A stretch of 64,000 nucleotides of DNA from a bacterium (GCA_965261085.1 OZ253442.1:1344001-1408000), one strand, 5' to 3'; shown: positions 3,090 through 51,296, counted from the first letter of the stretch. Numbers and translations: made by a program. The notes: a model not told the origin generated them from the sequence alone.

Positions 3090-3962
3090 ATGGCTCTTGA
3101 ACACCCATACATTCGCATCGCCAACATAACGCCCGAGAAGCTGGACGAAAAAGAGGGTTGGAACGTCTCCGATTTCCGGGTGGTCGTCAGCGGGAAGGAG
3201 GGTTCCTCCTCCATCATGTACCACGCCACCCTGGCCCCCGGGGATCGCCACCACAAGCACCGCTACGAGAACTGCCAGATGCAGTATTACGTCGTGAGCG
3301 GCCACGGCCTCGCGGGAGCGGGGGCGGATCGCGCCGAGGTGCACGCGGGCCACTTCCACCTGATCCCAAAAGGCGTGGAGCACTGGCTCGTGAACCTGGG
3401 CAGGCACGATCCCCTCGTCATCATCGGGTTCTACGACCGTGTTCCCCATTTCAAGGACACCGGCCACGTCTATCTCGGCGACGTGGGCGAGGCCGACCTC
3501 GCCGCCCCGCGCACGTTAAGCGCCGCCGCCCTGCAGCATCCCCTCGTGCACAACGACTCGGTTCCCCACGTCAAGGTGTCGAAAGAAGAAGGCTGGACGC
3601 AGGATTACTTCAACGAGCCGCTCAATCGCAGCAACGGGGCGGGTTCATGCTGGATGCAGGGCTACTTCGGCCCCCACACCGTGCACATGAAGCACCGCCA
3701 CAACAATTGCGAGGAGATATGCTATATCCTGAAGGGCCGCGGTTTGGCCGGAATCGGTAACGATCGGGGTGAAGTGTTCGCCGGGGACGTCAACTACATA
3801 CCCGCCGCCACGGAGCATTGGCTCGCGAACATCAGCGACAGCGAGGATCTCTCGGCCCCCGGCTGGTACATCGGCGTGGGCGGACTCGATGAGAGCGGCT
3901 TCGAGTATCTGGGTCCGGTGACAGATGAGGATTTGAAACAACGAACGGGCGCGATTGAATAG
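3090..3962 (+). CDS. bicupin protein A
   Basis: Two cupin repeats (HHKHRYENCQ...EHW and HMKHRHNNCEE...EHW); AGGAGG RBS. Confidence 0.8.
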   Translation: MALEHPYIRIANITPEKLDEKEGWNVSDFRVVVSGKEGSSSIMYHATLAPGDRHHKHRYENCQMQYYVVSGHGLAGAGADRAEVHAGHFHLIPKGVEHWLVNLGRHDPLVIIGFYDRVPHFKDTGHVYLGDVGEADLAAPRTLSAAALQHPLVHNDSVPHVKVSKEEGWTQDYFNEPLNRSNGAGSCWMQGYFGPHTVHMKHRHNNCEEICYILKGRGLAGIGNDRGEVFAGDVNYIPAATEHWLANISDSEDLSAPGWYIGVGGLDESGFEYLGPVTDEDLKQRTGAIE

Positions 3963-4002
3963 CGCTTCCTGAAAGAGCAACCATTTTGTGAGGAACAGAC
4001 CG

Positions 4003-4860
4003 ATGGCGCTCCAATACCCCCTGGTTCATATAGACGATATCGCCCCCGAGAGGATGGAGGAAAAAGAGGGCTGGGCGATTTCCGAGTTTCGCCTGCCCAT
4101 CACCGGCGCGCACGGAAGCTCGACGACCGTCTTTCACTCCATCTTCCGGCCCGGCTCCACGCACGCGAAACACTTACACACCGAGTGTGAGGAAATCGCG
4201 GTCTACTTGAAGGGAAACGGCGTGGTCGGCCAGGGCGACCAACGCGCCGAGGTGCGCGAGGGCCACTGCCGCCTCATGCCCAAAGGCTCGACGCATTTCT
4301 TCTATAACGAGACGAAAGACGAGGAAGCGATGGTGGTCGGGTTTTATCTCGGTGCGCCGAGCGTCGCGGGCACGGGCTATCAATTTCGCGGCGACGTGAC
4401 CCAAGCGGACCTCGACATGCCGCGCGATGGGCTGACCGATGGCATCCTGGTTCATCTCGACGACGTGCCGCAACAGAACATGAACGAGGGGGAGGGATGG
4501 TCGATCACCGATTTCAGGCTTCCTCTCGGCAGGCGCAACGGCAGCGATACGACGCTTTTTCGCGCGCGTTTTTTCCCGGGCGCCGTGCACAAAAAGCACA
4601 GGCACGATAATTGCGAGGAAATCTACTACATCATCAGCGGCCACGGCCTGGCGGGCGCGGGCGCTGATCGCGTCGAGGTGCGCGGCGGTCATTTCCACTA
4701 CATCCCCAAAGGGGTGGAGCACTGGCTTCACAATCTGAGCGATACCGAACCCATCGAGGCGGTGGGTATCTACATCGGGAGCGGGAGCGTGGAGGAGACG
4801 GGCTACGTCTATATGGGAGACGTTACGGAAGAGGACATCAAGGAGCGGACCCCGCTCTAG
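4003..4860 (+). CDS. bicupin protein B, paralogue of the upstream gene
   Basis: Two cupin repeats (HAKHLHTECEE...THF and HKKHRHDNCEE...EHW); ATG at 4003 follows GAGGA. Confidence 0.8.
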   Translation: MALQYPLVHIDDIAPERMEEKEGWAISEFRLPITGAHGSSTTVFHSIFRPGSTHAKHLHTECEEIAVYLKGNGVVGQGDQRAEVREGHCRLMPKGSTHFFYNETKDEEAMVVGFYLGAPSVAGTGYQFRGDVTQADLDMPRDGLTDGILVHLDDVPQQNMNEGEGWSITDFRLPLGRRNGSDTTLFRARFFPGAVHKKHRHDNCEEIYYIISGHGLAGAGADRVEVRGGHFHYIPKGVEHWLHNLSDTEPIEAVGIYIGSGSVEETGYVYMGDVTEEDIKERTPL

Positions 4861-4952: not shown

Positions 4953-5009
4953 TGAGGGGCATGGGGAATTGGCGCATATATACGAGACAAATCATTCGGG
5001 AGTAATGCC

Positions 5010-5558
5010 ATGAAGATAACCGAGGCGGCAGCCGGTAAAGTCAAGGAAATCATGGAGCAAAACGGCGGTGGTTTCGCCGGAATCCTGCTCAGTTTCGAGG
5101 GCGGCTACAAGCTCGACCTGGTGAAGGATGAGGATGTGGCCGAATACATCCGGGTAGAGAATTCCCTGCTGGGCGTTTTCGCCTCATCCGAGCACGTCGC
5201 CAGGGCGGAGAAGGCTCAAATCGAGTTCGTAACCGAAGGCCCTACGAGCGGGTTCAAGGTGACGCGCGAGATGTCGGATGGCGATGTGTCCCTCATCGAT
5301 CAGATTCAGGAGATTATCGACACGGAGATCAACCCGGCCGTCGCGTCCCACGGCGGCGTCATCAACCTGCTGGACGTGGAGGAAAAGCGTGTGTTCGTGC
5401 AGATGGGCGGAGGCTGCGCGGGTTGCGGCATGGCGGACGTGACGCTCAAATCAGGCGTCGAGGCGCGCCTGCAGCAACTAGACCCCGAGATTCAGGTGAT
5501 CGACACCACCGACCACGCATCGGGCTCGAACCCCTACTACGCGCCGACGAAAAAATAG
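5010..5558 (+). CDS. nfuA: NfuA-like Fe-S cluster carrier
   Basis: Degenerate N-terminal A-type domain (MKITEAAA..., SGFK) plus a NifU-C domain INPAVASHGG...GGGCAGC and C-terminal DTTDHASGSNPYY. Confidence 0.85.
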   Translation: MKITEAAAGKVKEIMEQNGGGFAGILLSFEGGYKLDLVKDEDVAEYIRVENSLLGVFASSEHVARAEKAQIEFVTEGPTSGFKVTREMSDGDVSLIDQIQEIIDTEINPAVASHGGVINLLDVEEKRVFVQMGGGCAGCGMADVTLKSGVEARLQQLDPEIQVIDTTDHASGSNPYYAPTKK

Positions 5559-5578
5559 TTTTAGTAAATAGCACGACG

Positions 5579-5608
5579 AAGGGCCGGCCGTTTGGCCGGC
5601 CTTTTTTT
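5579..5608 (+). terminator. intrinsic terminator between convergent genes
   Basis: GGCCGGCC-gttt-GGCCGGCC hairpin followed by a T7 run. Confidence 0.8.
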
Positions 5609-5611
5609 GTT

Positions 5612-6865
5612 CTATTCCCCGATATCGAAGCGGAGCTTCCCGTGCGCTAAGCGCAGAGCGGCTTCCACCTCTTCGGGCTTCTCTCCTTTGGCGAAGATAA
5701 ACCCCAGGTATCTCTCTCCCTCGGGCAGCGGCACGACGCGGCCGCCGATGTGGATGGATATGTCCAGGCTCACGATTCCGGGCACGGCGAGCGCGTCCTC
5801 CTTGCCCTCGACGCGCTTGAGCACCCCCGCTCCGGGTATGGGAATCATCATGACGCCAGAAGCCTTTTCCTCCCGCTCCACCGATGGCGGGGCCACGCCC
5901 AGGGCTTGGGAGAGAATGAGGTGTTCGAGCGAGGCGCCGCCGCCGAACTCGAGCGCGCCCGAGCATTTCCCGCCGATAGAGCGGCTAGCCACGTCGATCA
6001 CCCATATTCGGCCTTCCTCGTTGATTCTCAGTTCCGCGTGGAGTGGACCCTCGCGCAGGCGGATCGCCCGGGCCGCGCGAATGGTTTCTTCGCGGATTCT
6101 GGCTTGGCTTTCATCCGGTAGCCTCGAGGGCGTGACGTAGATGGTTTCCTCGAAAAAAGGACCCTCGAGGGGGTCGGGCTTGTCGAAGATGGCGAGAATG
6201 TGGACTTCCCCCCGCACGACGAGGCCTTCCACCGCCACCTCGACGCCCTCCAGGTAATCCTCCACCAGGATCATCCGCGCCTCCGGGCCGCCCCGGGCGA
6301 TGGTCTCGGGGTCTTCCAGTATCGCGCCGACCCGGCGGTAGGCCTCTGCGAACTCCGCCGGGTCGTTCGCTCGAATCACGCCCCGGCTTGCGGCCAGAAA
6401 GGTGGGCTTGAGCACGCAAGGGTAGCGGAGGCCTGCGGCGATTTTTTCCGGCTCTTCTTGTGCGGAGACCAGGCGAAAGGCGGGTGAGGGCAGGCCTTCT
6501 TCGGACAAGACTTTTCTGAGTTCATATTTGCTTCTCGTCGTGCGGGCGGCCTCCACGGGGTGGTAGGGCAAGCCCAGCGCTTCGGCGGCCATCGCGCCCA
6601 GGATGAGCGTGTCGTCATCCACCGGGGCGACCGCGTCGATGGGAAACTCTTTCGTGAACGCCTGTATGTGGGAGGCGCCCGCTTCGGGTTCGTTGTAATC
6701 GAGCGTGATGGAGCCGCCCGGGTTCAACTCGGCCAACAGGTCGGGCCTGTCGGTTCCCACCGTCAGGCGCAGTCCCATCTCCTGCGCCGCCGCCATATAG
6801 GCGGATGCCCGGTAGGTGGCCGTCGTCATCAGCAGGAGAACGCGCTCCCCTTCTTCAGGTGGCAT
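5612..6865 (-). CDS. ATP-grasp domain protein
   Basis: YPCVLKP...ASRGV, EDYLEGVEVAVEG, FDKPDPLEGPFFEET, HAELR motifs. Confidence 0.85.
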   Translation of the reverse strand: MPPEEGERVLLLMTTATYRASAYMAAAQEMGLRLTVGTDRPDLLAELNPGGSITLDYNEPEAGASHIQAFTKEFPIDAVAPVDDDTLILGAMAAEALGLPYHPVEAARTTRSKYELRKVLSEEGLPSPAFRLVSAQEEPEKIAAGLRYPCVLKPTFLAASRGVIRANDPAEFAEAYRRVGAILEDPETIARGGPEARMILVEDYLEGVEVAVEGLVVRGEVHILAIFDKPDPLEGPFFEETIYVTPSRLPDESQARIREETIRAARAIRLREGPLHAELRINEEGRIWVIDVASRSIGGKCSGALEFGGGASLEHLILSQALGVAPPSVEREEKASGVMMIPIPGAGVLKRVEGKEDALAVPGIVSLDISIHIGGRVVPLPEGERYLGFIFAKGEKPEEVEAALRLAHGKLRFDIGE

Positions 6866-7634
6866 ACCACCCGCCGTCCACCAGGAGCGATGTGCCGGTG
6901 ACGAGACTGCTCGCCTGTGAGGCCAGAAAGACGGCCGGGCCTACGAGTTCACTCATCTGCCCGAATCGGCCCATGGGCGTTCTGTCGCAGATGGCGTCGT
7001 AGATGAGTTTGTCTTCCTGGAGAGAGGCGGTGAGATCCGTTTCGATGTACGTGGGGCAGATGGCGTTCACCTGGATGTTCTCCTTCGCCCATTCGGAGGC
7101 GAAAACGCGGGTGAGGCCGATGACGCCGCTTTTGGAAGACGTGTAGGGCCCGTAGCACTGTTTGCGCGGGTTTCTGAACACCGACCAGCCCATGAGCGAG
7201 GAGATGTTGATCACCTTGCCGCCGCCCGCCTTTTTCATCTCCTCGCCCGCGCGCCTCGTGATGAAGAAGATGCTCTTTAAGTTCAGATCGAGCACCCTGT
7301 CCCAGTCCGCCTCGGTGATATCCCAAAGAGTTTTCCGCACGTTCGTGCCCGCGTTGTTCACCAGCACGGTGAGGCCGTCCAGCGCGGCGGCGGCTTCGAT
7401 CACCATGCGCTCGGCTGATTCCATATCGGTCACGTCGGTCTGGATGAGCGCGCATTTACGGCCCATGCCCTCGATGGCTTCTTTCGCCTCCTGGGCGGGG
7501 CTTAAGTCGATATCCGCGATGGCGACGTCTGCGCCTGCGGCGGCCAGGCCCTCGGCCAGCGTGCGTCCGATGCCGCGCGCAGCGCCCGTGACGAGCGCCT
7601 TGGCACCGCTCAGGTCGAATAGAGATTGGCTCAT
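6855..7634 (-). CDS. short-chain dehydrogenase/reductase (gluconate 5-dehydrogenase-like)
   Basis: TGAARGIG, NNAG, YTSSK, VDGGW. Confidence 0.9.
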   Translation of the reverse strand: MSQSLFDLSGAKALVTGAARGIGRTLAEGLAAAGADVAIADIDLSPAQEAKEAIEGMGRKCALIQTDVTDMESAERMVIEAAAALDGLTVLVNNAGTNVRKTLWDITEADWDRVLDLNLKSIFFITRRAGEEMKKAGGGKVINISSLMGWSVFRNPRKQCYGPYTSSKSGVIGLTRVFASEWAKENIQVNAICPTYIETDLTASLQEDKLIYDAICDRTPMGRFGQMSELVGPAVFLASQASSLVTGTSLLVDGGWYAT

Positions 7635-7824
7635 GTGTCGGTTCTCCTCTTCTTGGGGTGTCGGTTTTTCCCGATTCTCTCCGCCGGGGCGTTCCGGGTC
7701 AATGGGGGCCGGCCTTCTCGTTGGCCTTCATAAGAGAGTATGATAATCAATATGGAAATGTTTCTCTCCCCTTTGCGTTCTCGCATGAGAGTGGGTTCCG
7801 GTTCGCTTGGCGCAGGAGTGAACG

Positions 7825-9474
7825 ATGGTGAAAGCCGGGGATAACGGCGCGAAAAAAGAGCGTCCCATCCGCGAGGCTGCCTATAACTCGGGCAAGCCCG
7901 TGCCCGTGGTGTACGGGCCGGACGCGCCGGATGAGGCGTACCGCGATAAACTCGGCGCGCCTGGGGAATACCCCTACACGCGGGGCATCTACCCCACGAT
8001 GTACCGGGGTTCGCTCTGGACGATGCGCCAGTACGCGGGTTTTTCCACCTCGGCGGACACCAACGCGCGGTTTCATTTTCTGCTCGGAAACGGCCAGACG
8101 GGCCTCTCGATGGCTTATGATCTGCCCACCCAGCTTGGGCTCGACTCGGACGATGAGACGGCGCAGGACGACGTGGGACGCCTGGGCGTCGCCGTGGATA
8201 CCGTCGAGGACATGGCCGGTATTTTCGAGGGAATACCGCTGGAGCGGGTGAGCGTCTCGCACACCATCAACTCCACCGCCGCCATCATCCAGGCGTTCTG
8301 GCTCATCGCCGCCGAGCGCCAGGGAGTCGCGCTGGAGAAGCTGCGCGGCACGTTCCAGAACGACATGCTCAAGGAATACATCGGCCGGGGCACATGGATT
8401 TTCCCGCCCCGGCCCTCCATGCGTCTTGTGGCGGACATCATCGAGTACAACGCGAAGCACTGCCCGCGCGTGAACGCCATCAGCGTTTCCGCCACTCACA
8501 TCGCCGAGACCGGCGCCACCCTCGCGCAGGACGTCGCCTTTCCCATCCTGAACGCCCTGGCCTACATACGCGAACTCACCGGACGCGGCCTCCACGTGGA
8601 TGATTTCGTGCCCACCATGTCGTTTCACCTCTCCATCGGCGGAGGCGTAGGGCCCTTCAATCTGCTCGAATCCATCGGCAAGCTGCGTGCGGCGCGGCGC
8701 ATCTGGGCGCGCACGATGAAGGAGAAATACGGCGCGAAAAACCCGAAAACCATCCAGCTTAAGTTCTCGACCGGCAATTGCGGCAGTCGCATGGCGGCGC
8801 GCGAGCCGCTCAACAACATCGTGCGCCAGACGCTCTTCACCCTGGCCGCCGTGCTGGGCGGCACGCGCTCGGTCAATATGGCGTGCTTCGATGAGGCCTT
8901 TGAGATTCCCTCAGACGAGTCCATTCGCACGGCGCTCCGGATTCAGCAGGTGATAGCCCATGAGAGCGGCGTGGCCGACACCGTGGACCCGCTAGCGGGC
9001 AGCTTTGCGCTGGAAGCCGTGACCGATCAGGTGGAAGAGGAGATTCAGGCAATCGTGGATGATTACGAATCGCGCGGGGGAATCGTTCCCTTCATCGAGA
9101 GCGGCGAGATCCAGAGGCTGCTGGCGCGCCAGGCCTATGAGCATCAGCAGAAGATTGCGGCAGGCGAGCAGGTGTGGGTGGGCGTGAACAAGTTCACCTC
9201 AGAAGAGGAAGACCGCATGAGCGCGGGCGAGGGCCTCTACGAGATGGACGATTCGACCCTCGAGAAACAAAAGGCGCGGCTTGCGGAGGTGAAGGCCGCC
9301 CGCGATGCGGGAGAGGTGGCCGCGCAACTAGAACAACTGCAAAGAACGTGTGAGTCGAAAGAGAATCTGGTGCCTTGTTTAATGGAGGCAGCCCGCGCGC
9401 GCCTTACCGTGGGGGAGATGACGGAGGTGATGCGCGGTGTGTTCGGAAGCTATATGGAGCCTTCGGTGGTTTGA
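7825..9474 (+). CDS. B12-dependent acyl-CoA mutase, large (substrate-binding) subunit, methylmalonyl-CoA mutase family
   Basis: PGEYPYTRGIYPTMY, WTMRQYAGF, QNDMLKEY, FDEA, DPLAGS, VGVNKF; several active-site segments are divergent. Confidence 0.9.
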   Translation: MVKAGDNGAKKERPIREAAYNSGKPVPVVYGPDAPDEAYRDKLGAPGEYPYTRGIYPTMYRGSLWTMRQYAGFSTSADTNARFHFLLGNGQTGLSMAYDLPTQLGLDSDDETAQDDVGRLGVAVDTVEDMAGIFEGIPLERVSVSHTINSTAAIIQAFWLIAAERQGVALEKLRGTFQNDMLKEYIGRGTWIFPPRPSMRLVADIIEYNAKHCPRVNAISVSATHIAETGATLAQDVAFPILNALAYIRELTGRGLHVDDFVPTMSFHLSIGGGVGPFNLLESIGKLRAARRIWARTMKEKYGAKNPKTIQLKFSTGNCGSRMAAREPLNNIVRQTLFTLAAVLGGTRSVNMACFDEAFEIPSDESIRTALRIQQVIAHESGVADTVDPLAGSFALEAVTDQVEEEIQAIVDDYESRGGIVPFIESGEIQRLLARQAYEHQQKIAAGEQVWVGVNKFTSEEEDRMSAGEGLYEMDDSTLEKQKARLAEVKAARDAGEVAAQLEQLQRTCESKENLVPCLMEAARARLTVGEMTEVMRGVFGSYMEPSVV

Positions 9475-9887
9475 TGGCGAGAACTGAGAAGCGCATACGG
9501 GTGCTGATGGCGAAGCCGGGCCTCGATGGCCATGATCGGGGTGTGAAGGTAATCATCCACGCGCTCAGGGACGCCGGCATGGAGGTGATCTACTCGGGTC
9601 TGCGGCAGACGGATGCGCAGATAGTCGCCGTCGCGCTTCAGGAGAACGTGGACGTCATCGGCCTGAGCGTGCTCTCGGGCGCCTATATGGGGATTGCGCG
9701 CAGGCTCATGGCCAGATTGGCCGAAGAGGGCCTCGATGATTGCCTCGTCATCTTAGGCGGGAACATTCTCGAGCGTGACGTGGCGGAGCTCAAATCCTTA
9801 GGCGTCGCCGAAGTCTTCAACCACCATGCGGACATGGCCGAAATCGTCTCGTACATCAGGAATAATGTAGTAGCCGGCGCGGCCTAG
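9474..9887 (+). CDS. cobalamin-binding small subunit of the acyl-CoA mutase
   Basis: KPGLDGHDRG (DxHxxG) motif; ATG overlaps the upstream stop (TGATG). Confidence 0.9.
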   Translation: MARTEKRIRVLMAKPGLDGHDRGVKVIIHALRDAGMEVIYSGLRQTDAQIVAVALQENVDVIGLSVLSGAYMGIARRLMARLAEEGLDDCLVILGGNILERDVAELKSLGVAEVFNHHADMAEIVSYIRNNVVAGAA

Positions 9888-9903
9888 CGGCGGCGTATCT
9901 TTC

Positions 9904-11112
9904 GTGGGGGAATCAGTTTTGGAAAAGCCGCTGGAGGGCGTGCGCATACTCGATCTTTCCGCCCTGCTCGCAGGCCCGTACGGCAGCATGGTGCTGGCCG
10001 ATTTGGGTGCGGACGTCATCAAGATAGAAGTGCCGGGCCGGGGCGACCTCGTCCGCACGATGCCGCCGCACTACGTGGGGGAGACGAGCGCCTACTTCAT
10101 CGCCCTGAACAGGAACAAGCGGGGCATTTTTCTGAACTTAAAAGACGAGGAGGGCTACCGCGTCTTTTGTGAGATGGTGAAAAGCTCCGACGTCGTTTAT
10201 GACAATTACCGCCCCGGCGTACTGGAACGCCTGGGCGCGGACTATAAAACACTCAAAAAGGTGAATCCCCGAATCATCAGCGCCTCCGTCACGGGCTATG
10301 GACTCACGGGGCCTCAAAAGGACAAGCCCGCTCTCGACCTCATCATTCAGGGGCGCGGCGGCATCATGAGCTTCACCGGCGAGCCGGGCAGGCCGCCCGT
10401 GCGCCTGGGCGTGCCGATGGGGGACATGGGCGGGGGTCTGTTCGCCGCACACGGGATTCTGGCGGCCCTTTACAAGCGCGAGAAGACGGGCGTCGGCCAG
10501 AAGGTGGACGTCTCGCTCCTCGACAGCCAGCTCTATCTCGCAAGCTACCGTTCGCAATACTATCTGACGGCGGGCGACGTGGCCAAGCCGATGGGCACGG
10601 GCCACGCATCCGCCGTTCCCATCGGCGCGTATCAGTGTGGCGACGGGAAGTGGCTTGTGCTCGATGCGATTCTGGATCATTTCTTCCAGGGTCTTTGCGA
10701 CGCGCTGGGTCATCCCGAATGGAAGGACGACCCCAGGATGAAGGATCGCCCCACCCGCCTCGAGAATCGCGAATACGTGGATGCGAAACTCTCGGAAGTC
10801 TACAAGACGAACACGGCGGCGTACTGGATAGAGAAAATCGAGGCGCACGGCGTTCCCTGCGGGCCGATTCAGAGCATCGACGAGGCGCTCAACGATCCCC
10901 AAACGCGCGCCCGAGAGATGGTGGTGGAGATGACCCACCCCGAACTCGGCAAGATGCAGACGTTCAACACGCCCGTCAAGATGGAGGGTACGTGGGGGGC
11001 CACCCCTTCGCCGCCTCCCCTGATGGGCGAGCACACCGAAGAAGTGCTCAAGGAAGTGCTTGGTCTGGGCGATGAGGAAATCGAGCGGTTAAAAGAGCGC
11101 AAGGCGATATAA
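9904..11112 (+). CDS. family III CoA-transferase (CaiB/BaiF)
   Basis: LEGVRILDL, LADLGADVIKIE, NRNKR, PMGDMGGG catalytic Asp, PPLMGEHT. Confidence 0.9.
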   Translation: MGESVLEKPLEGVRILDLSALLAGPYGSMVLADLGADVIKIEVPGRGDLVRTMPPHYVGETSAYFIALNRNKRGIFLNLKDEEGYRVFCEMVKSSDVVYDNYRPGVLERLGADYKTLKKVNPRIISASVTGYGLTGPQKDKPALDLIIQGRGGIMSFTGEPGRPPVRLGVPMGDMGGGLFAAHGILAALYKREKTGVGQKVDVSLLDSQLYLASYRSQYYLTAGDVAKPMGTGHASAVPIGAYQCGDGKWLVLDAILDHFFQGLCDALGHPEWKDDPRMKDRPTRLENREYVDAKLSEVYKTNTAAYWIEKIEAHGVPCGPIQSIDEALNDPQTRAREMVVEMTHPELGKMQTFNTPVKMEGTWGATPSPPPLMGEHTEEVLKEVLGLGDEEIERLKERKAI

Positions 11113-11121
11113 GAGGCCGTC

Positions 11122-11910
11122 ATGTTTCATGACAAAAAGGCTTTCGTGTTCGACCTGGAAGGAGTTTTTTTCGCCGGAGACGAGGTGATGTCCGGCGGGG
11201 TGGAGTTGATGCGCGCCATCAAGCGGAGAAACCTCCCCCATCGCTTCATCACGAACATCAGCCGCAGCACGGCTGCGGAGATTCGCGCCCACATGGCGGG
11301 GATCGGCCTCGACCCGGGGGAGAACCTCATCGTGGCCGCGCTGGATCGGGTTGGTTCGTTTCTGAGGAAGAACTTTGGATCTGGCCGGGCGTACGTGCTG
11401 GGGACGGATTCGCTCAAGGGAGCGGTCGCATCGGGTGGTTTCGAGATAGTGGGCCTGGAGGAGGAAGATGCGGCCGACGTCGTCCTCGTTGGTCTAGACG
11501 AGGCTCTCACCTACCGGACGTTGAGCGCAGCCGCCCGGGCGGTCAGCCGGGGGGCGCACTTCGTCGCCATGAACCCCGACGTGCGCCTGCCGAGTGAGGA
11601 TGGTTCGTTCTCCCTCGGCGGGGGCGCAATCATGGCTTCGGTGCAGGCGGCGGCGGGCAGGGAGCCGGTTTTTTTTGGAAAGCCCGAGCCTTTTCTCTTT
11701 GAAGAAGCGCTTCATGAGTTGGGCGTGGAGGCGCGCCACGTCGTCATGGTGGGAGACAACCTAAGGACGGACATCGCGGGCGGCCAGAAAGTGGGCATGG
11801 CCACCGTGTGGGTGAACCGCTGGGGCGTGATAGCCGGGGACCCGGACGTGACGGCGGACCTGGAAGTGAAGACGCTTGATGAACTGATGCCGCATCTGCC
11901 GGGCGGTTGA
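11122..11910 (+). CDS. HAD-IIA hydrolase (NagD-like)
   Basis: FDLEG motif I variant, FITN, NPD, GKP, MVGDNLRTDI. Confidence 0.85.
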   Translation: MFHDKKAFVFDLEGVFFAGDEVMSGGVELMRAIKRRNLPHRFITNISRSTAAEIRAHMAGIGLDPGENLIVAALDRVGSFLRKNFGSGRAYVLGTDSLKGAVASGGFEIVGLEEEDAADVVLVGLDEALTYRTLSAAARAVSRGAHFVAMNPDVRLPSEDGSFSLGGGAIMASVQAAAGREPVFFGKPEPFLFEEALHELGVEARHVVMVGDNLRTDIAGGQKVGMATVWVNRWGVIAGDPDVTADLEVKTLDELMPHLPGG

Positions 11911-11932
11911 GTCTCCGAAAAGAGAGGACGAT

Positions 11933-12688
11933 ATGGCGCTGGTCGAATATGAGGTGAGAGACAAGCTGGCCTGTATCACGCTGAACAGGCCGGAGAAGAT
12001 GAACGCGATCAATCACGAGATGAGCGAGCGCATCTTTTCGCTCTTCGACGAGATGGAACGCGACCCCGGCGTTTGGGGCTGTCTGATCACAGGCGAGGGA
12101 AAAGCGTTCTCGAGCGGGCATGACCTCACCGAGCCGCCGCCCGAGGATAGGGAGATCAAACCCGTCTCCGACCTCTATCAGGTCATCATGGAACTCTACA
12201 AGCCATGCTTTGCGGCGATCAACGGGTTTTGTCTGGCGGGAGGAGCGGGCATCGCGCTCTCCTGCGACGTGCGCGTCATGGCTGAAGATACGCAGCTCGG
12301 CTGGCCCCAGGTCGTGCGCGGCATCTCCTCCGTCAGCGGGCCGATTCTCCTGGCGAAGCTGCTGCCCTTCAACCTCGCGCACTACCATCTGTTCACCGGC
12401 GAGCCCATCAACGCGGAGACCGCGCTCAGGCTCGGCCTTGTGAACAAGTTGGCGCCAAAGGAAAACGTGTTGGAGGAGACGGAGAAGATCGCGCGTCAGG
12501 TACTGGCGAACGCGCCCCTGGCGGTGCGCGCCATCAAGGAGATTACCGTCCGCGCGCGCGACATGACGATGGAGGACGCCCTTCGCTTCGGCGACGTGAT
12601 CTTAAAGCGCCTACTTGAGACTGAAGATGCCGAGGAGGGCGTGCGCGCCTTCAAGGAGAAAAGAACGCCGCATTTTAAGGGGAAATAA
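11933..12688 (+). CDS. enoyl-CoA hydratase/isomerase (crotonase) superfamily protein
   Basis: ITLNRPEKMNA, AFSSGHDL, AAINGFCLAGG, EGVRAFKEKR. Confidence 0.88.
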   Translation: MALVEYEVRDKLACITLNRPEKMNAINHEMSERIFSLFDEMERDPGVWGCLITGEGKAFSSGHDLTEPPPEDREIKPVSDLYQVIMELYKPCFAAINGFCLAGGAGIALSCDVRVMAEDTQLGWPQVVRGISSVSGPILLAKLLPFNLAHYHLFTGEPINAETALRLGLVNKLAPKENVLEETEKIARQVLANAPLAVRAIKEITVRARDMTMEDALRFGDVILKRLLETEDAEEGVRAFKEKRTPHFKGK

Positions 12689-12737
12689 AGATTATTCTAA
12701 TCCTTTGCTCCATCCTTCTAGCTGAAAGGAGGCGGCG

Positions 12738-13898
12738 GTGAGATTTGACCTCACGGACTCTCAACGAGAAATCCAGCAAAAAGCCCGCGAAATCGCCACG
12801 AACCTGATAGCGCCCAAGGCGGCGTTCTGGGACCAGACCGAGGAATATCCCTGGGAAAACGCCAAGATTCTGGCGGATGCCGGCTTCATGGGAATGAACG
12901 TCCCCAAGGAATTCGGCGGACCCGAGCGTCCGCTGATAGAGGCCGTCCTGGTGGTCGAGGAGATGGCCAAGGTCTGCGGCATCACGGGGCGCATCGTGGT
13001 GGACAGCAACATGGGCGTGGTGGGAGCAATCATCAAGTACGGGACCGAGGAGCAGAAGAAAAAGTATCTGCCGATGGTGCTCGCAGGGGACAAGCCCGCC
13101 ATCGTCATCACAGAGCCCGAGGCGGGAAGCGCCGCCACCGACATGACGACGAGGGCCGTGCTCGACGGCGATGAGTACATCCTGAACGGCAAGAAGAAGT
13201 GGATTACCGGCGCTGGCGTCTCCCGCATCAATCTCGTGTTCGCCCGCGTGGTGCACGGGGGGGATGAACAGGGAATCGGCGCCCTGATCGTGGAGTTGGG
13301 CGCGGAGGGCTTCCGTATAGGGGATCGCGCCTTCATGATGGGCTTGAGGGGAATCCCCGAGAGTGAGGAGATCTTTGAGAATTGCCGTGTGCCTCAGAAA
13401 AACTTGGTGACGGTGGGATTCGGGCGCCTGATGGCCGCTTATAACGCACAGCGGGTGGGAGCCGGCACGGTGGCTTTGGGGATTGCCGAGGGCGCCTTCG
13501 CCCAGGCGGTGGAATACGCCAAAAAGCGCCACCAGTTCGGCCGCCCGATATCGGAATTCCAGGGGCTTCAGTGGATTCTGGCGGATGCGCGCATTCAACT
13601 CGACGCCGCGCGGCTCCTGCTCCACCGGGCGGCGGTGCAGGAAGACCCCAAAACGGGATTTCCCGACATGCGCCTGGCCGCCATAGCCAAGACGTTTTCG
13701 GCTGAAGCCTCGATCAAGGTGACGAACGACGCGCTCCAGATTTTTGGGGCGGCGGGCTATTCACGCGATTTGCCGATTGAGCGCATGGCGCGTGACGTGC
13801 GTATGTTCACCATCGGCGGCGGCACCACCCAGGCGCAGAGGAACGTGATTGCGTCTGGCATTTTCGGGAGAAAATTCTCTCAGCGCAGGGGAGAGTGA
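12738..13898 (+). CDS. acyl-CoA dehydrogenase family protein, 3-sulfinopropionyl-CoA desulfinase-like
   Basis: GRIVVDSNMG, GDKPAI, GLRGIPE, AYNAQRVGAG and RMFTIGGGT match the segments I recall from the Advenella desulfinase Acd; neither canonical catalytic Glu position has Glu. Confidence 0.75.
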   Translation: MRFDLTDSQREIQQKAREIATNLIAPKAAFWDQTEEYPWENAKILADAGFMGMNVPKEFGGPERPLIEAVLVVEEMAKVCGITGRIVVDSNMGVVGAIIKYGTEEQKKKYLPMVLAGDKPAIVITEPEAGSAATDMTTRAVLDGDEYILNGKKKWITGAGVSRINLVFARVVHGGDEQGIGALIVELGAEGFRIGDRAFMMGLRGIPESEEIFENCRVPQKNLVTVGFGRLMAAYNAQRVGAGTVALGIAEGAFAQAVEYAKKRHQFGRPISEFQGLQWILADARIQLDAARLLLHRAAVQEDPKTGFPDMRLAAIAKTFSAEASIKVTNDALQIFGAAGYSRDLPIERMARDVRMFTIGGGTTQAQRNVIASGIFGRKFSQRRGE

Positions 13899-14015
13899 AA
13901 AAACCCCGTTCAAAGGGTGGGCGTCTCACGAAGGCGGCCCGCGTCCGCTTGGCTTATTGGGGCTGGAATGTCCCCGGAGAGAGCAGATAAACCCTGGCCG
14001 TATTGCAAAGGAACC

Positions 14016-14360
14016 ATGATGGCTATCTTTACGCTGCAGGAAGCCCGTGCCCTGCTGCCGCAGGTCAAGGAAGTGACGCAGCATTACTTCGATGTCGTTG
14101 AGGAGATGCGCGAACAGCTGGAAACCCTTGATGAGTCGCGCGATGTCAAGCGCCTCGAAGGATTCATGAATGACGCTGTTGGCGAGTGGGTGAAGGCCGT
14201 CAGAAACCTCGGGGTGGAAGTCAAAGGCTTATGGCTGGCGGATTTCGATTCGGGAGACGGCTATTACTACTGCTGGAAACTCGGCGAGGTCGACATCGAA
14301 CATTTTCACCGCTACGAAACGGGGTTCGCCGGTCGCCGTCCCATTTCGTTGCTCGAGTAA
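14016..14360 (+). CDS. DUF2203 family protein
   Basis: FTLQEARALLP...GVEVKG..LADF...YYCWKLGE...FH..ETGFAGRRPI; AAGGA RBS before ATG 14016. Confidence 0.8.
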   Translation: MMAIFTLQEARALLPQVKEVTQHYFDVVEEMREQLETLDESRDVKRLEGFMNDAVGEWVKAVRNLGVEVKGLWLADFDSGDGYYYCWKLGEVDIEHFHRYETGFAGRRPISLLE

Positions 14361-14501
14361 GACTCACGGCACCGTTCCGGTAATCATTCATCCAGGGTTC
14401 ATTTACCAATATCCATATTACCGCTACTCGCACACCTGGAAATTTCTTACGGACGAAGCATGCCCCAATCAGTGCGCGCCGTGCGGAGGAGGAGATGCGC
14501 C

Positions 14502-15722
14502 CTAGCCGTATTGCAGTATCATGCCCGTGATCCCGCATTCGATGCAGCCGGCCACCTCGATGCAGCGTGAATTCGCCGGCGGCATCACCACGCCGGTAAT
14601 GCCCTCCCTGTAGTATCGCTCGAACGGATAGCGTCGCGCGATGGAGCGGCCCCCCACGAGCCGCATCGCGTGCTGCACCACCTTGGCGCAGACCTCGCAT
14701 GAGATGTATTTGGACTGCATGACGGTTTTCACCGTGTTCTGGTTCGCCATGCCGTCTCCTTGTTCTTTCACGTGGCACGCCTCGTACAGGAGCATCCGCG
14801 CGGCTCTGATTTCGGAGCTCAACTCGCCGATGCTGGTCTGGTACATCTCGTTGTGGCTCAGCGGCTCGGGGTTGGGCGGGTACTGCGTTGTTTTCACATA
14901 CTCGACCAGGTGATTGTAGGCCCCTTCCGCGATGCCCAGATAAGCGGCGGCAAACCCGAGGTGGAACATGGTGATGTCGATTTTCCCCAGCGCGCCGATG
15001 AAGTTCTCACCCCCCAGGATGTCTTCATGCGGCACGAAGGTATCCTCGAAGATGATGTCGTCACTCGCCGTTCCCCGCATCGACATGGTGTCCCACACCA
15101 CTTTCACGGATGAGCCTCCGTAATCCTTGTGGAGCACGGCGGTCATGATGGCTTCCGCAGCGGTATTCTTCCCCTCGAGGAACCCGGTGGTGAAGTAATA
15201 ATCGGCATGTGCGCCTATCGAGGCGGAAATCTTCCTGCCGCTTAAGCGGTAGCCGCCCTCGACGGGAGAGAAGATGGTCTTGAGCGTCACCAGATGACGG
15301 AAGCTCATACCTCGTTCCGCCGTGACGGAGGAGAATAGCTTTCCGTTCTCGACGATGTCGGGTAGCACCCGTTTTTTCTGCTCCTCGTTCGCCAGGTCGA
15401 AGAAGAGGCTCACGCATGTCTGGTGCATATTCCAGGTGAGGGCGGTGGAGGCGCACGCCTTGCCCAGTTCTGCGAGCGCCATGTTGTAGGTGAGGGAATT
15501 CGCGCCCGAGCCTCCCCACTCTTCAGGGATGCACAGGGCGTTCAGGCCCGCGTCGGTGAGCAGTTTGTAGTTCTCGGTGGGGAAGCGGCCTTCGCGGTCG
15601 ATTTCAGCCGCCATCTCGGCCATCTGTGGCGTGAGGGCTTTGATTTTGTCGATGATCTGTTTGTCGTATTTCAGATCCATCAGCGTTTCGTATGACTCAC
15701 TCGCCGCGATTTTGGGACCCAT
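14502..15722 (-). CDS. acyl-CoA dehydrogenase-fold flavoprotein (possibly a monooxygenase)
   Basis: IDREGRFP, WNMH, WDTMSMRGTAS, ERYYRE..TG..MPP; start placed after an AGGAGG RBS. Confidence 0.8.
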   Translation of the reverse strand: MGPKIAASESYETLMDLKYDKQIIDKIKALTPQMAEMAAEIDREGRFPTENYKLLTDAGLNALCIPEEWGGSGANSLTYNMALAELGKACASTALTWNMHQTCVSLFFDLANEEQKKRVLPDIVENGKLFSSVTAERGMSFRHLVTLKTIFSPVEGGYRLSGRKISASIGAHADYYFTTGFLEGKNTAAEAIMTAVLHKDYGGSSVKVVWDTMSMRGTASDDIIFEDTFVPHEDILGGENFIGALGKIDITMFHLGFAAAYLGIAEGAYNHLVEYVKTTQYPPNPEPLSHNEMYQTSIGELSSEIRAARMLLYEACHVKEQGDGMANQNTVKTVMQSKYISCEVCAKVVQHAMRLVGGRSIARRYPFERYYREGITGVVMPPANSRCIEVAGCIECGITGMILQYG

Positions 15723-16098
15723 TTTTTTCCTCCTGTTCATCAAGGCGAAAAGCGCCTCGCCCTCGATCATCCAGACGGCTTCCTGCTAAAGGTCGAGCGA
15801 GAAGACATGCTCGACGCATCTCGTGTTCAACTCATTCCAATCTCCATTTTGGTTTTCTATTCTCGCATCGCTCCGCCGGCTCGATTTGCAAAGGCGGTCG
15901 CGCCACATGAGAAAAGGCGCAATTCCTCCGCCGGGGGATGATTGTCGATTCTATCAGACGCCCCCTTGAGTTTGACAGCGCTTCATGGAGGCATGTAATC
16001 TCCGCTGGGTTTTCCATACTTTAACCCATTGTGAAAATTCGTGCACCAGCCGCCCGGCGGTCCTGGTTTCGTTTCTCATGTTTTCTGGGAAGGTGTCC

Positions 16099-17100
16099 AT
16101 GGCTCCCCGCGTACTCGTCTCCACCACGCCATTCGGTGAGATAGACCCGAAGCCCATCGAAATGCTCGAAAGCGCAGGCGTGGAATACGTGCGCAACACT
16201 TTGGGCAAGCGTCCGAACGAGGATGAATTCGCCGAGATGATTTCCGGTGGCTTCGACGCCGTCATCGCGGGTCTCGAACCGTTCACCCCGAGAATATTGG
16301 ATTTGGCGAAGAGGCTGCGGTTCATATCGCGCGCCACGGTGGGTCTCGAGACGGTGGATTTGAACGCGGCGAGAGAGAGAAGCATTCTCGTTGCAAACAC
16401 CCCCGGAGCCAACTCGGAAGCCGTGGCGGAACTGACGCTGAGCCATCTGCTCTCACTCCTGCGCGGCGTGCATCACTCCCACAATGCGCTCTTGCGCGGG
16501 GAGTGGCTCCAGTATATGGGCCGCACGCTCGATGAGATTACGCTGGGCGTCATCGGCGTGGGGCGAATCGGTAAACGGGTGATACGCCACGTATCCGGTT
16601 TCGGGGCGAAGATCATCGCGAACGACCTGGCGCCCGATGCGGAATTTGGCGAGCGCTACGGCGTGGAATGGGCCGAAAAAGAAGAAATCTACCGCCGCGC
16701 CGACACCGTCTCCTTACACGTTCCCGCCACGCCGGCGACGATCCACATGATGGGTGAAGAGGAGATCGCGATGATGAAAAAAGGCGCGTTTCTCATCAAT
16801 ACGGCGCGCGGCGTCATCGTGGACGATGAGGCGCTGGCCCGCGCGTTGCGCTCGGGCCATCTGGGGGGCGCCGGGATCGACGTTTTCCCCGAAGAACCCT
16901 ACCGGGGAGCTCTCGCGGGAGCGCCCAACTGCATTCTCACCGCGCATCTAGGCGCGCGTGCGCGTTCCTCGCGCCTACAGATGGAACTGGACGCGACGGA
17001 GAACGTCTTGTGCTTTCTGGCGGGCAAGCCGATTCCGGGGCTCGTGCCGGATGAGGAATACGAGATGCAACGCATCATCACCGCCGACATGAACACGTAA
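16099..17100 (+). CDS. D-2-hydroxyacid / phosphoglycerate dehydrogenase family
   Basis: NTPGANS, GVGRIG, LINTARG, DVFPEEP, TAHLGA. Confidence 0.88.
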   Translation: MAPRVLVSTTPFGEIDPKPIEMLESAGVEYVRNTLGKRPNEDEFAEMISGGFDAVIAGLEPFTPRILDLAKRLRFISRATVGLETVDLNAARERSILVANTPGANSEAVAELTLSHLLSLLRGVHHSHNALLRGEWLQYMGRTLDEITLGVIGVGRIGKRVIRHVSGFGAKIIANDLAPDAEFGERYGVEWAEKEEIYRRADTVSLHVPATPATIHMMGEEEIAMMKKGAFLINTARGVIVDDEALARALRSGHLGGAGIDVFPEEPYRGALAGAPNCILTAHLGARARSSRLQMELDATENVLCFLAGKPIPGLVPDEEYEMQRIITADMNT

Positions 17101-22479: not shown

Positions 22480-23223
22480 TTATTCCCACCCCGAAGGCCC
22501 GAAAATCAGAAGAGAAAGTGCTGCGGCTATCATCAGCCCCAAACCAACCGTGAAGCCCAGAGCGGGGGGGATGCGTCCGCGCAGCAGCCTTCCCAGCAAA
22601 AATCCGGCGACCGCTGGCAGAATCGATAAGGCGGAGCGCGCCGATTCAAAAGCCCCCAGCGCGCCCGAGCCGCTCAGCAGGGCCACCTGAACGCTCGCGA
22701 ACACCAGCGCGCTCGTATAGGTGAGCCGCATCATCCGGGCGCGGCCCGCACCCGTGCTGTCGAGATACATGATGCTCACGGGGCCGCCCGAGTACGAAAA
22801 ACCGCTCAGACCGCCTGCGAAAAAACCCGCCAGATAGGTGAAGAAGGTCTCATCGCGCATGTCGAGTTGTACTCTCTGGCGCGAGATGCTGTAGGCGGCG
22901 AACAACAGGACGAGGACGCCCACCGACCACTTGAGGAACGTGGGGGGGCTTGAGATGAGCGTCAGCGCGCCCACGGCGGCGCCCGCCGCGCCCGCGCCCA
23001 GAAAAGGCATGAGGCGTCTGAGTGATGGAGCGGGAACACCGCCTCCGATAGCGCGAATCGCCACCAGGATGAGGTTTGGGAGCGAGAGGGTGAGCACGGA
23101 ATCACGCACCCCGATGAGAGCGCCCAGCGCCGGGGTCGCCAACAGGCCGAAGTCGATTCCCGCGGCTCCCTCCAGCAGTCCTGCGGCGAAAATGAGAAGC
23201 GTGATATCCCAGGATGGCCACAT
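22480..23223 (-). CDS. TauE/SafE family sulfite exporter-like membrane protein
   Basis: About eight hydrophobic segments, G..G..FGL...P N-terminal motif, GGP motif. Confidence 0.7.
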   Translation of the reverse strand: MWPSWDITLLIFAAGLLEGAAGIDFGLLATPALGALIGVRDSVLTLSLPNLILVAIRAIGGGVPAPSLRRLMPFLGAGAAGAAVGALTLISSPPTFLKWSVGVLVLLFAAYSISRQRVQLDMRDETFFTYLAGFFAGGLSGFSYSGGPVSIMYLDSTGAGRARMMRLTYTSALVFASVQVALLSGSGALGAFESARSALSILPAVAGFLLGRLLRGRIPPALGFTVGLGLMIAAALSLLIFGPSGWE

Positions 23224-50894: not shown

Positions 50895-51296
50895 ATGAAG
50901 AAAATGGCGATTGTCGGCGCATTTCATCATGTCCATATGATCAGCAGGGATCCCGACGGGGTAGCCGATTGGTTCGAACGCTTCTTCGGGAGTGAGATAG
51001 TGGCCGAGCAGTTTCCGGCCGGGGCGCGCAACCTCGTCCTCCGGGTGGGGGAAGGGACGCTCAGCGTGCGCACCCCCCGGCCCTCGGACGGACTCACGGA
51101 AGCGGATGGCCCTCGCCCCAAGGGGTACGGAATCCATCACTTCTGCTTCGTAGTGGATGACCTGAAAGGATTACTCGAGGACTTGCGCGCCAATGGGGTG
51201 ACAAATATCCAGGAGATGCCCGTCCACGTGAGTGGCAAGTTCGCCGCCTTTATCGAGGGCCCCGAGGAAATGCCCATCGAGCTCATTCAGGCCTGA
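50895..51296 (+). CDS. VOC/glyoxalase family protein
   Basis: FHHVHM...D, GIHHFCFVVDDL, GPE..PIEL. Confidence 0.85.
   Translation: MKKMAIVGAFHHVHMISRDPDGVADWFERFFGSEIVAEQFPAGARNLVLRVGEGTLSVRTPRPSDGLTEADGPRPKGYGIHHFCFVVDDLKGLLEDLRANGVTNIQEMPVHVSGKFAAFIEGPEEMPIELIQA

Follow-up and report, generated by a model that had tools for sequence, protein, structure and literature searches.

The six-gene row considered here occupies positions 7825-13898 of a 64-kb window (64,000 nucleotides, GCA_965261085.1 OZ253442.1:1344001-1408000; "the window" means this whole stretch) from a bacterium of a sponge-associated genus, an assignment with which homologue names agree, as does the sponge-metagenome label of listed RNA runs other than those whose contigs are described below. 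All six open reading frames (ORFs) lie on the plus strand in a tight row with spacers of -1, 16, 9, 22, and 49 nt, the ATG of mutS overlapping the stop codon of mutL by 1 nt (Table 1). They encode the two subunits of an adenosylcobalamin (AdoCbl)-dependent acyl-CoA mutase (mutL and mutS), a family III CoA-transferase (CoAT), a HAD-IIA hydrolase (HAD), a crotonase-fold protein (ECH), and a protein with acyl-CoA dehydrogenase (ACAD) fold that is homologous to 3-sulfinopropionyl-CoA desulfinases (ACD). A reading made earlier from the DNA alone (the sequence-only reading) had described six tightly packed co-directional genes of these families, with which ORF calls and Pfam and NCBIfam matches agree, and had proposed that the mutase provides the desulfinase with a rearranged sulfur-containing CoA ester. 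The comparisons presented here tip towards another reading, namely that two units with separate inheritance have come to lie side by side in this genus alone. Of these, unit A would comprise mutL, mutS, CoAT, and HAD (7825-11910), and unit B would contain ACD.

Table 1. Co-directional ORFs of the gene row and the ORF that follows it (positions in the window)
Gene	Position	Strand	Product and remarks
mutL	7825..9474	+	AdoCbl-dependent acyl-CoA mutase, large (substrate-binding) subunit of the uncharacterised 'STG' clade
mutS	9474..9887	+	Small B12-binding subunit
CoAT	9904..11112	+	Family III CoA-transferase
HAD	11122..11910	+	HAD-IIA hydrolase with Asp-x-Glu in motif I
ECH	11933..12688	+	Crotonase-fold protein lacking both hydratase glutamates; genus-specific
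ACD	12738..13898	+	Homologue of Acd-type 3-sulfinopropionyl-CoA desulfinases
DUF2203 ORF	13917..14360	+	PF09969, 85 bits; seventh co-directional ORF, 18 nt past ACD

The products of mutL and mutS belong to the superfamily of AdoCbl-dependent acyl-CoA mutases, as the large subunit matches PF01642 (580 bits) and TIGR00641 (592 bits) and the small subunit, which matches PF02310 (76.5 bits) and TIGR00640 (132.6 bits), carries the B12-binding motif DxHxxG in the form DGHDRG, conserved in 21/21 orthologues read. The equivalog model for methylmalonyl-CoA mutase (MCM), NF006944, is matched by mutL with 514.2 bits over model positions 46-552, below its cut-off of 876; this model describes the fused form with 721 positions, of which a split form matches only a part, so that the score is weak evidence by itself. 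The best solved relative of mutL is HcmA (4R3U, 461 bits), followed by MCMs. The window enzyme shares with HcmAB the division into a large and a small subunit, but 4R3U has the motifs RQIAGF and MAQKE where mutL has RQYAGF and IGRGT, and a true HcmA-like paralogue is encoded elsewhere in the genome, at 2.02 Mb.

In MCM, the residues Tyr89, Arg207, Tyr243, His244, His328, and Gln330 and the LHTNS loop have roles in the substrate pocket. The mutase of the window has the fold and the DxHxxG B12-binding motif in common with MCMs (MutAB, human MMUT, and the split archaeal type), and mutL keeps Tyr89, Arg207, and His244, so that this type of reaction is to be expected, on a substrate in which an anionic group adjoins the migrating centre. 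The remainder of the pocket differs from that of MCM. The pocket motifs of mutL are RQYAGF, IGRGT, SATH, FSTGNCGSR, and NMAC, together with the insertion GGGVGPF; compared with the canonical enzyme, SATH stands for SGYH, FSTG for FHxQT, and NMAC for HTNS, and five residues are inserted. Tyr243 is thereby replaced by Thr, His328 by Ser, Gln330 by Gly, and the HTNS loop by NMAC, which means that residues closing the pocket in MCM are exchanged for small ones. These substitutions are kept in all 21 orthologues read, to which the sponge-lineage mutase clade adds an extra Arg (GSRMA). The SxTH/FSTG/NxxC pocket is common to 119 of the best 120 database homologues of mutL, the exception being P0014. 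In the literature, nothing relevant was found on this mutase pocket or on a sulfino-acyl-CoA mutase.

A quick maximum-likelihood tree with 50 rows, for which the careful search is unfinished, places mutL in a clade of 27 rows, the STG clade, with a support of 100 in the SH-like approximate likelihood ratio test (SH-aLRT). The sponge-lineage sequences (5 rows, SH-aLRT 100) are sister to the other 22 rows of this clade. All canonical MCM rows of the SGYH type are placed outside, including a paralogue from the same genome: this genome holds four mutL-like and three mutS-like genes, among them a canonical large subunit (SGYH/FHSQT/LHTNS) at 1.49 Mb. The tree, the pocket motifs, and this canonical paralogue bear out the earlier claim that the mutase is not an ordinary MCM. 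To our knowledge, the acyl-CoA mutases characterised so far cover few specificities, namely those for methylmalonyl-, isobutyryl-, ethylmalonyl-, 2-hydroxyisobutyryl-, pivalyl-, and phenylsuccinyl-CoA. The STG clade has retained the anion-binding residues, has rebuilt the rest of its pocket, and, in two or more phyla, consistently has a family III CoA-transferase of its own as partner. These features make it a well-delimited candidate, open to testing, for a rearrangement of a substituted dicarboxyl-CoA that would be new.

Two further mutase genes of this genome are divergent. A second mutase set, at about 2,018,300-2,022,800, has a pocket of the HcmA type (RQIAGF, DFDMPT, SQKEW) and includes genes for a separate B12-binding subunit, a ligase of the AMP-forming type, and a member of the MeaB family; this set looks like a 2-hydroxyisobutyryl-CoA mutase operon. 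At about 3,125,800-3,127,450, a third divergent large subunit (SAAGAH, FGVVCGG, TIFTCAYDEA) is preceded by a crotonase gene and followed by an aldehyde:ferredoxin oxidoreductase gene, with no small subunit adjacent.

The gene partner that is inherited together with the mutase is the CoA-transferase. The CoAT protein (PF02515, 443 bits) has succinate-hydroxymethylglutarate CoA-transferase (292 bits), formyl-CoA transferase, and YfdE as its best solved relatives. In the family to which the window's organism belongs, mutL, mutS, and CoAT are found together in 20/20 loci. For the mutase outside this phylum, 401 genomes of Thermodesulfobacteriota were searched, with three candidates scored per genome, and 12 of them encode an STG-clade mutase with 54-59% identity. 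A family III CoA-transferase lies directly beside the mutase genes in 10 of these 12 loci, and the window CoAT is 50-56% identical to these ten transferases versus 44% for its best paralogue in its own genome. In two of the 12 loci (L145 and L147), the order is CoAT-mutL-mutS-carboxyltransferase-epimerase, and the remaining loci are situated among TRAP or Tct transporters and enzymes resembling those of the tricarboxylic acid (TCA) cycle. As canonical-type mutases are also encoded in all five STG-carrying Thermodesulfobacteriota genomes checked for them, the STG enzyme is an extra paralogue rather than the housekeeping MCM.

These results bear on an explanation in which the row serves carbon bookkeeping: CoAT would activate 3-sulfinopropionate with succinyl-CoA, ACD would produce propionyl-CoA, and the mutase, acting as MCM, would regenerate succinyl-CoA from carboxylated propionyl-CoA. 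The conservation of Tyr89, Arg207, and His244 and the gene order of L145 and L147, which resembles a methylmalonyl pathway, are consistent with it, and in Variovorax paradoxus TBEA6, according to PMC6370202, act and acdA are adjacent and propionyl-CoA has been proposed to enter, among other fates, the methylmalonyl route. However, a canonical MCM-type paralogue is available elsewhere in the genome, as it is in the five Thermodesulfobacteriota genomes, the pocket of mutL is heavily remodelled, and neither a carboxylase nor an epimerase nor MeaB is encoded next to the row. The absence of adjacent MeaB and epimerase genes had already been pointed out in the sequence-only reading and is confirmed: the two MeaB-family genes of the genome are located at 2.02 Mb and 2.74 Mb, and the sole glyoxalase/epimerase-like ORF of the window is found at 50895-51296. 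Together with the inheritance of the mutase without ACD in seven genomes (see below), this makes the bookkeeping explanation unlikely.

Several additional observations concern other mutase loci. In four loci (L138:11267-11683, L141:4669-5100, L142:674-1090, and L143:831-1247), the mutase-associated CoA-transferase gene is followed by a gene for a conserved protein of about 138 residues, which has an N-terminus resembling a signal peptide and belongs to no Pfam family; it precedes a TAXI-type TRAP transporter in three of the four loci, where the contig is long enough. Three Thermodesulfobacteriota genomes (L253-L269) contain 7-10 mutase-like matches each. Their pocket patterns are of six or more additional kinds, GAYH/LAVCS, SSYH/YPSGN, GGFH/VSTAH/NCNPP, and RGII/FTGTV among them, and several of these paralogues again adjoin a family III CoA-transferase. 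A scan of genome contigs with the mutase was swamped by one generic pattern and yielded no context for the clade: all 78 loci with a readable motif, out of 80, encode canonical MCMs of the SGYH type.

The second gene of interest, ACD, encodes a protein whose best model is NF042439 (3-sulfinopropanoyl-CoA desulfinase). The match covers the full length (residues 13-384 versus model positions 1-379) and reaches 552.3 bits, below the equivalog cut-off of 600. Against the solved desulfinase 5AF7/5AHS, ACD scores 433.6 bits, versus 283.5 bits for the next chain. Acd-type desulfinases are marked by Arg84 and Gln246 and by the lack of the catalytic Glu of the YEG motif. When aligned to 5AF7, ACD has GRI at the position of Arg84 and YNAQR at that of Gln246, and it lacks the catalytic Glu, as it reads IGGGT where dehydrogenases have YEGT and where 5AF7 has IAGGT. 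Among the matches listed, Gln246 and GGG are present in 120/120 homologues down to 60% identity and Arg84 in 118/120, the other two sequences being incomplete; two of the listed homologues are named 3-sulfinopropanoyl-CoA desulfinase by a source. The view that the ACAD is desulfinase-like is thus strengthened by the score to 5AF7, both marker residues, and the missing Glu, and ACD is predicted to belong to the Acd family or to a lineage immediately beside it.

Among known systems, a close one is that of Acd (AcdA) with the family III CoA-transferase Act in Advenella mimigardefordensis DPN7 and V. paradoxus TBEA6, and the window resembles this Acd/Act system in the fold and marker residues of ACD and in having a family III CoA-transferase in the same gene row, as act and acdA are neighbours in strain TBEA6 (passages of PMC6370202). 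It differs in that ACD stays just under the cut-off of NF042439 and has GGG where Acd has AGG, in that the window CoAT is of the mutase-associated type, and in that no Mdo-type dioxygenase is encoded nearby; the only CDO_I match, a weak one of 37 bits, is located at 0.50 Mb.

The GGG motif is a hallmark of IaaF, the decarboxylating benzylmalonyl-CoA dehydrogenase, according to passages of PMC8360864. There, a split B12-dependent acyl-CoA mutase that acts on substituted succinyl/malonyl-CoA (IaaGH), a family III CoA-transferase (IaaL), and a Glu-less ACAD with GGG in place of YEG (IaaF) are described as clustered in Aromatoleum aromaticum. By analogy, CoAT would activate an aryl- or alkylsuccinate, the mutase would convert it into a substituted malonyl-CoA, and the Glu-less ACAD would decarboxylate and oxidise this compound to an enoyl-CoA. 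The presence of the same three enzyme types, the IGGGT of ACD, and the enlarged mutase pocket, which suits a bulky substituent, would fit such a pathway. The comparison is one by description and not by sequence, and it reveals clear differences: the other iaa genes, encoding the indoleacetate-CoA ligase (IaaB type) and hydantoinase-like proteins, are absent around the cluster, ACD is similar to the desulfinase 5AF7, with Arg84 and Gln246 both present, and ACD is inherited separately from the mutase. Moreover, all IaaF-branch enzymes are located in iaa operons (passages of PMC8360864), whereas the 120 listed ACD homologues all have GGG and no mutase gene was found in the flanks of any of the 26 homologue loci from metagenomes (80 loci returned for ACD, 26 of which encode homologues with 52-61% identity). 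For this reason, ACD is read as a member or near sister of the Acd family, and an Iaa-like pathway encoded by the whole row is considered highly improbable. When IaaF was sought via the Archaeoglobaceae, all 14 best ACADs from 81 genomes were ordinary dehydrogenases with YEG, a result that bears neither way on the nearness of IaaF to ACD. Around 17 other mutase paralogues of the three Thermodesulfobacteriota genomes with many mutase-like matches, no iaa-like cluster was found either. The nearest described architecture to unit A nevertheless is IaaL-IaaGH of anaerobic indoleacetate degradation, again as compared by description.

Among the 26 metagenome loci, a CoA-transferase gene is next to the Acd homologue in two and about 7 kb away in one more. 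In one marine metagenome contig (L156:1488-9999), genes for a CoA-transferase, an Acd homologue (57% identity), and a sulfatase stand in a row that is flanked by three genes for Rieske-domain oxygenases; here the desulfinase has an organosulfur setting of another kind.

The linkage between the two enzymes was compared across genomes. In a sample of 51 genomes of the phylum, both genes are present in 21 genomes, only the mutase in seven, only ACD in one, and neither in 22. Within the genus, the mutase has orthologues in 20/22 other genomes, but conservation at this level is uninformative because the whole 14-kb neighbourhood is syntenic. Individual genomes of the genus have lost parts of the row independently. 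Genome G009 has lost mutL-mutS-CoAT and ECH, with HAD (84% identity) and ACD (92%) still in place, and genome G001 has retained the mutase and carries an insertion with a DNA-methylase-like ORF in place of ECH and ACD. In G007, ECH is present only as fragments, and in G002 an insertion sequence (IS) element separates ECH from ACD; the spacer between these two genes ranges from 44 to 1747 nt across loci. The IS-like element of G002 (L103:10900-12600, about 1.5 kb) contains a transposase-like ORF and is found at more than 20 places in the window's genome in copies with 79-81% identity.

Outside the genus, seven genomes of the family encode the mutase. In five of them (completeness 67-93%), ACD finds no match at E <= 1e-110, and in the other two it is unlinked. 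In G534, a single contig of 3.68 Mb that is 98% complete, unrelated genes come after the series cupin-NfuA-ATPgrasp-SDR1-mutL-mutS-CoAT-HAD; the homologue of ACD, with 57% identity, lies at a distance of about 780 kb, where its neighbours resemble genes for YjgF, DAO, and sarcosine oxidase. In G532, separate contigs carry the mutase cassette and ACD (77%), each in its own gene setting, and ACD is followed by the same SfnB/DszC-like ACAD gene as in the window. ACD is thus inherited independently of the mutase. In the Thermodesulfobacteriota, an ACAD gene is adjacent to the STG mutase in 0/12 loci, and the best ACD homologues in the 401 genomes are only 42-44% identical and lack Arg84 (four candidates scored per genome).

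These data speak against the proposal that the mutase feeds the desulfinase. According to this proposal, the mutase interconverts 2-sulfino- or 2-sulfopropionyl-CoA and 3-sulfinopropionyl-CoA, and ACD or the Glu-less crotonase frees the sulfur group. The row would then encode a B12-dependent organosulfur pathway. The close relationship of ACD to Acd, the retained anion-binding residues Arg207 and Tyr89 in an enlarged pocket with an extra Arg, and the lack of both glutamates in ECH, as in decarboxylase-type crotonases, are compatible with it, as are the contiguity of the genes in most loci of the family and the RNA-library contigs spanning their junctions (see below). Yet the linkage is confined to one genus, of the two genes only ACD is left in G009 and only the mutase in G001, the sister-clade mutases neighbour transporters, carboxyltransferase and epimerase genes, or TCA-like genes, and CoAT is of the mutase-associated type, with only 38-42% identity to the CoA-transferases encoded next to Acd homologues. 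The co-occurrence of the mutase clade with Acd desulfinases, for which the sequence-only reading had proposed to look, is not seen from either side, neither in the 12 STG loci nor in the 26 Acd loci. Of the two findings named in advance as speaking against the proposal, one was made, as the linkage is not conserved outside the genus, and the other was not, as the mutase groups with the STG clade and not with ordinary MCM. A sulfino-mutase is therefore chemically conceivable but finds no support in the comparisons, and the proposal is regarded as very unlikely. A variant, in which the genus has recruited the remodelled B12-dependent mutase to organosulfur catabolism for interconverting 3-sulfinopropionyl-CoA and a 2-sulfino- or sulfo-acyl-CoA, with sulfite/SO2 subsequently released by the Acd homologue or the Glu-less crotonase, is considered similarly improbable. 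Such a reaction would be a sulfur analogue of the succinyl/methylmalonyl shift and, for CoA esters of sulfinates or sulfonates, the first rearrangement to depend on B12.

The two genes between the mutase-CoAT block and ACD are of different conservation. The HAD protein exceeds the cut-off of TIGR01460 (145.1 versus 100.15 bits), and its best solved relatives are YutF, PH1952, and phosphatases of the NagD type. Its motif I reads DLEG, with Glu at the Asp+2 position, versus DxDG, and motifs II-IV are intact (TN, GKP, GDNxxTD). DLEG or DIEG is kept in 21/21 orthologues, including those of the genera g3 and g20, and HAD is placed after CoAT in the genera g1, g3, and g20.

ECH (PF00378, ECH_1, 173 bits) has Gly and Gln at the positions of the two catalytic Glu residues when aligned to 5ZAI, and SSGHD instead of CAGAD. 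The Gly/Gln replacement is kept in 16/16 orthologues, and ECH is predicted to be incapable of hydrating an enoyl-CoA. The model of methylmalonyl-CoA decarboxylase, NF008506, is matched with 130.9 bits, below the cut-off of 257, and the GHD motif, which we take to be characteristic of YgfG-type methylmalonyl-CoA decarboxylases, is the sole feature that ECH has in common with them. No ECH orthologue above 46% identity was found in G534, G532, G024, G009, and G001, and the gene is decayed in G007; ECH is dispensable and genus-specific. The claim that several proteins of the row have non-canonical catalytic residues is well founded, as mutL, HAD, ECH, and ACD all deviate and the deviations are kept in the orthologues examined.

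The Sbm-YgfG-YgfH operon of Escherichia coli, which converts succinate to propionate and is the model for recycling of CoA followed by decarboxylation, likewise combines a mutase with a CoA-transferase and with a protein of crotonase fold that lacks the hydratase glutamates. The window shares these three components but differs from this operon in that YgfH is a family I transferase, in that ECH is below the decarboxylase cut-off, genus-specific, and dispensable, and in that MeaB/ArgK is missing from the row.

For the preferred reading of two separately inherited units, the following reactions are proposed. In unit A, CoAT would load an imported organic acid onto CoA, probably with succinyl-CoA or the product of the pathway itself as donor, which would recycle the CoA. 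Subsequently, the AdoCbl-dependent mutase would catalyze a 1,2-shift of the thioester carbon, and HAD with its Asp-x-Glu motif might serve as an accessory hydrolase. The retention of Tyr89, Arg207, and His244 leads to the expectation of a substrate in which a carboxylate-like anion neighbours the migrating centre. The small residues in place of Tyr243, His328, Gln330, and HTNS, the five-residue loop, and the extra Arg point to a substrate other than methylmalonyl-CoA, possibly with a second anionic group. Thus, judged from protein sequences, the substrate is probably a substituted succinyl- or malonyl-type CoA ester. Four observations suggest such a substrate, handled with recycling of CoA: the anion-binding residues are still present, the pocket is enlarged, CoAT has relatives of the dicarboxylate type, and decarboxylating enzymes are encoded after sister-clade mutases. 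In unit B, ACD, read as an orthologue of Acd, would hydrolyse 3-sulfinopropionyl-CoA, or a compound much like it, in a reaction free of redox steps that gives propionyl-CoA and sulfite. ECH most likely would perform enolate chemistry such as a decarboxylation.

Some observations weigh against a division into two units. The six genes stand in one row in 16/20 loci of the family, and CoAT is the sole CoA-transferase near ACD and may also supply the substrate of ACD. As G009 retains HAD without the mutase, HAD may lie outside unit A. Short metatranscriptome contigs from four runs of two studies cover parts of all six genes and span the junctions mutS/CoAT, HAD/ECH, ECH/ACD, and ACD/DUF2203; because such RNA-library contigs prove neither transcription nor a single transcript, they lend weak support to co-expression in this genus. 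The six genes may nevertheless be co-transcribed here and may have acquired a shared role. In general, the locus is a reminder that a tidy six-gene row need not encode one pathway: the neighbouring desulfinase is separately inherited and of an already recognised enzyme type.

No riboswitch or other RNA family was found in an Rfam scan of positions 5000-17000, in which one MicX match remained below threshold, and a scan of the region for promoters and terminators performed no better than with shuffled sequences. The neighbours of the cluster encode a short-chain dehydrogenase/reductase (SDR), an ATP-grasp protein, NfuA, a bicupin, the DUF2203 protein, an SfnB/DszC-like ACAD, and a 2-hydroxyacid dehydrogenase. 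The DUF2203 ORF is absent from the corresponding place in G007 and G020. The ACAD-fold gene at 14502-15770 (minus strand) has matches that include the sulfur-acquisition monooxygenases SfnB (121 bits) and DszC (107 bits), and it may belong with the desulfinase unit because it also adjoins the ACD homologue in G532. A membrane protein of the TauE/SafE family (sulfite exporter type) is encoded about 8.5 kb downstream of the cluster (22480-23223, minus strand) and is not counted as part of it because ruvABC and yebC intervene. Upstream of the cluster, two adjacent bicupin genes of 290 residues each (3090-3962 and 3988-4860, plus strand) are tandem paralogues and are kept at this place in three genera.

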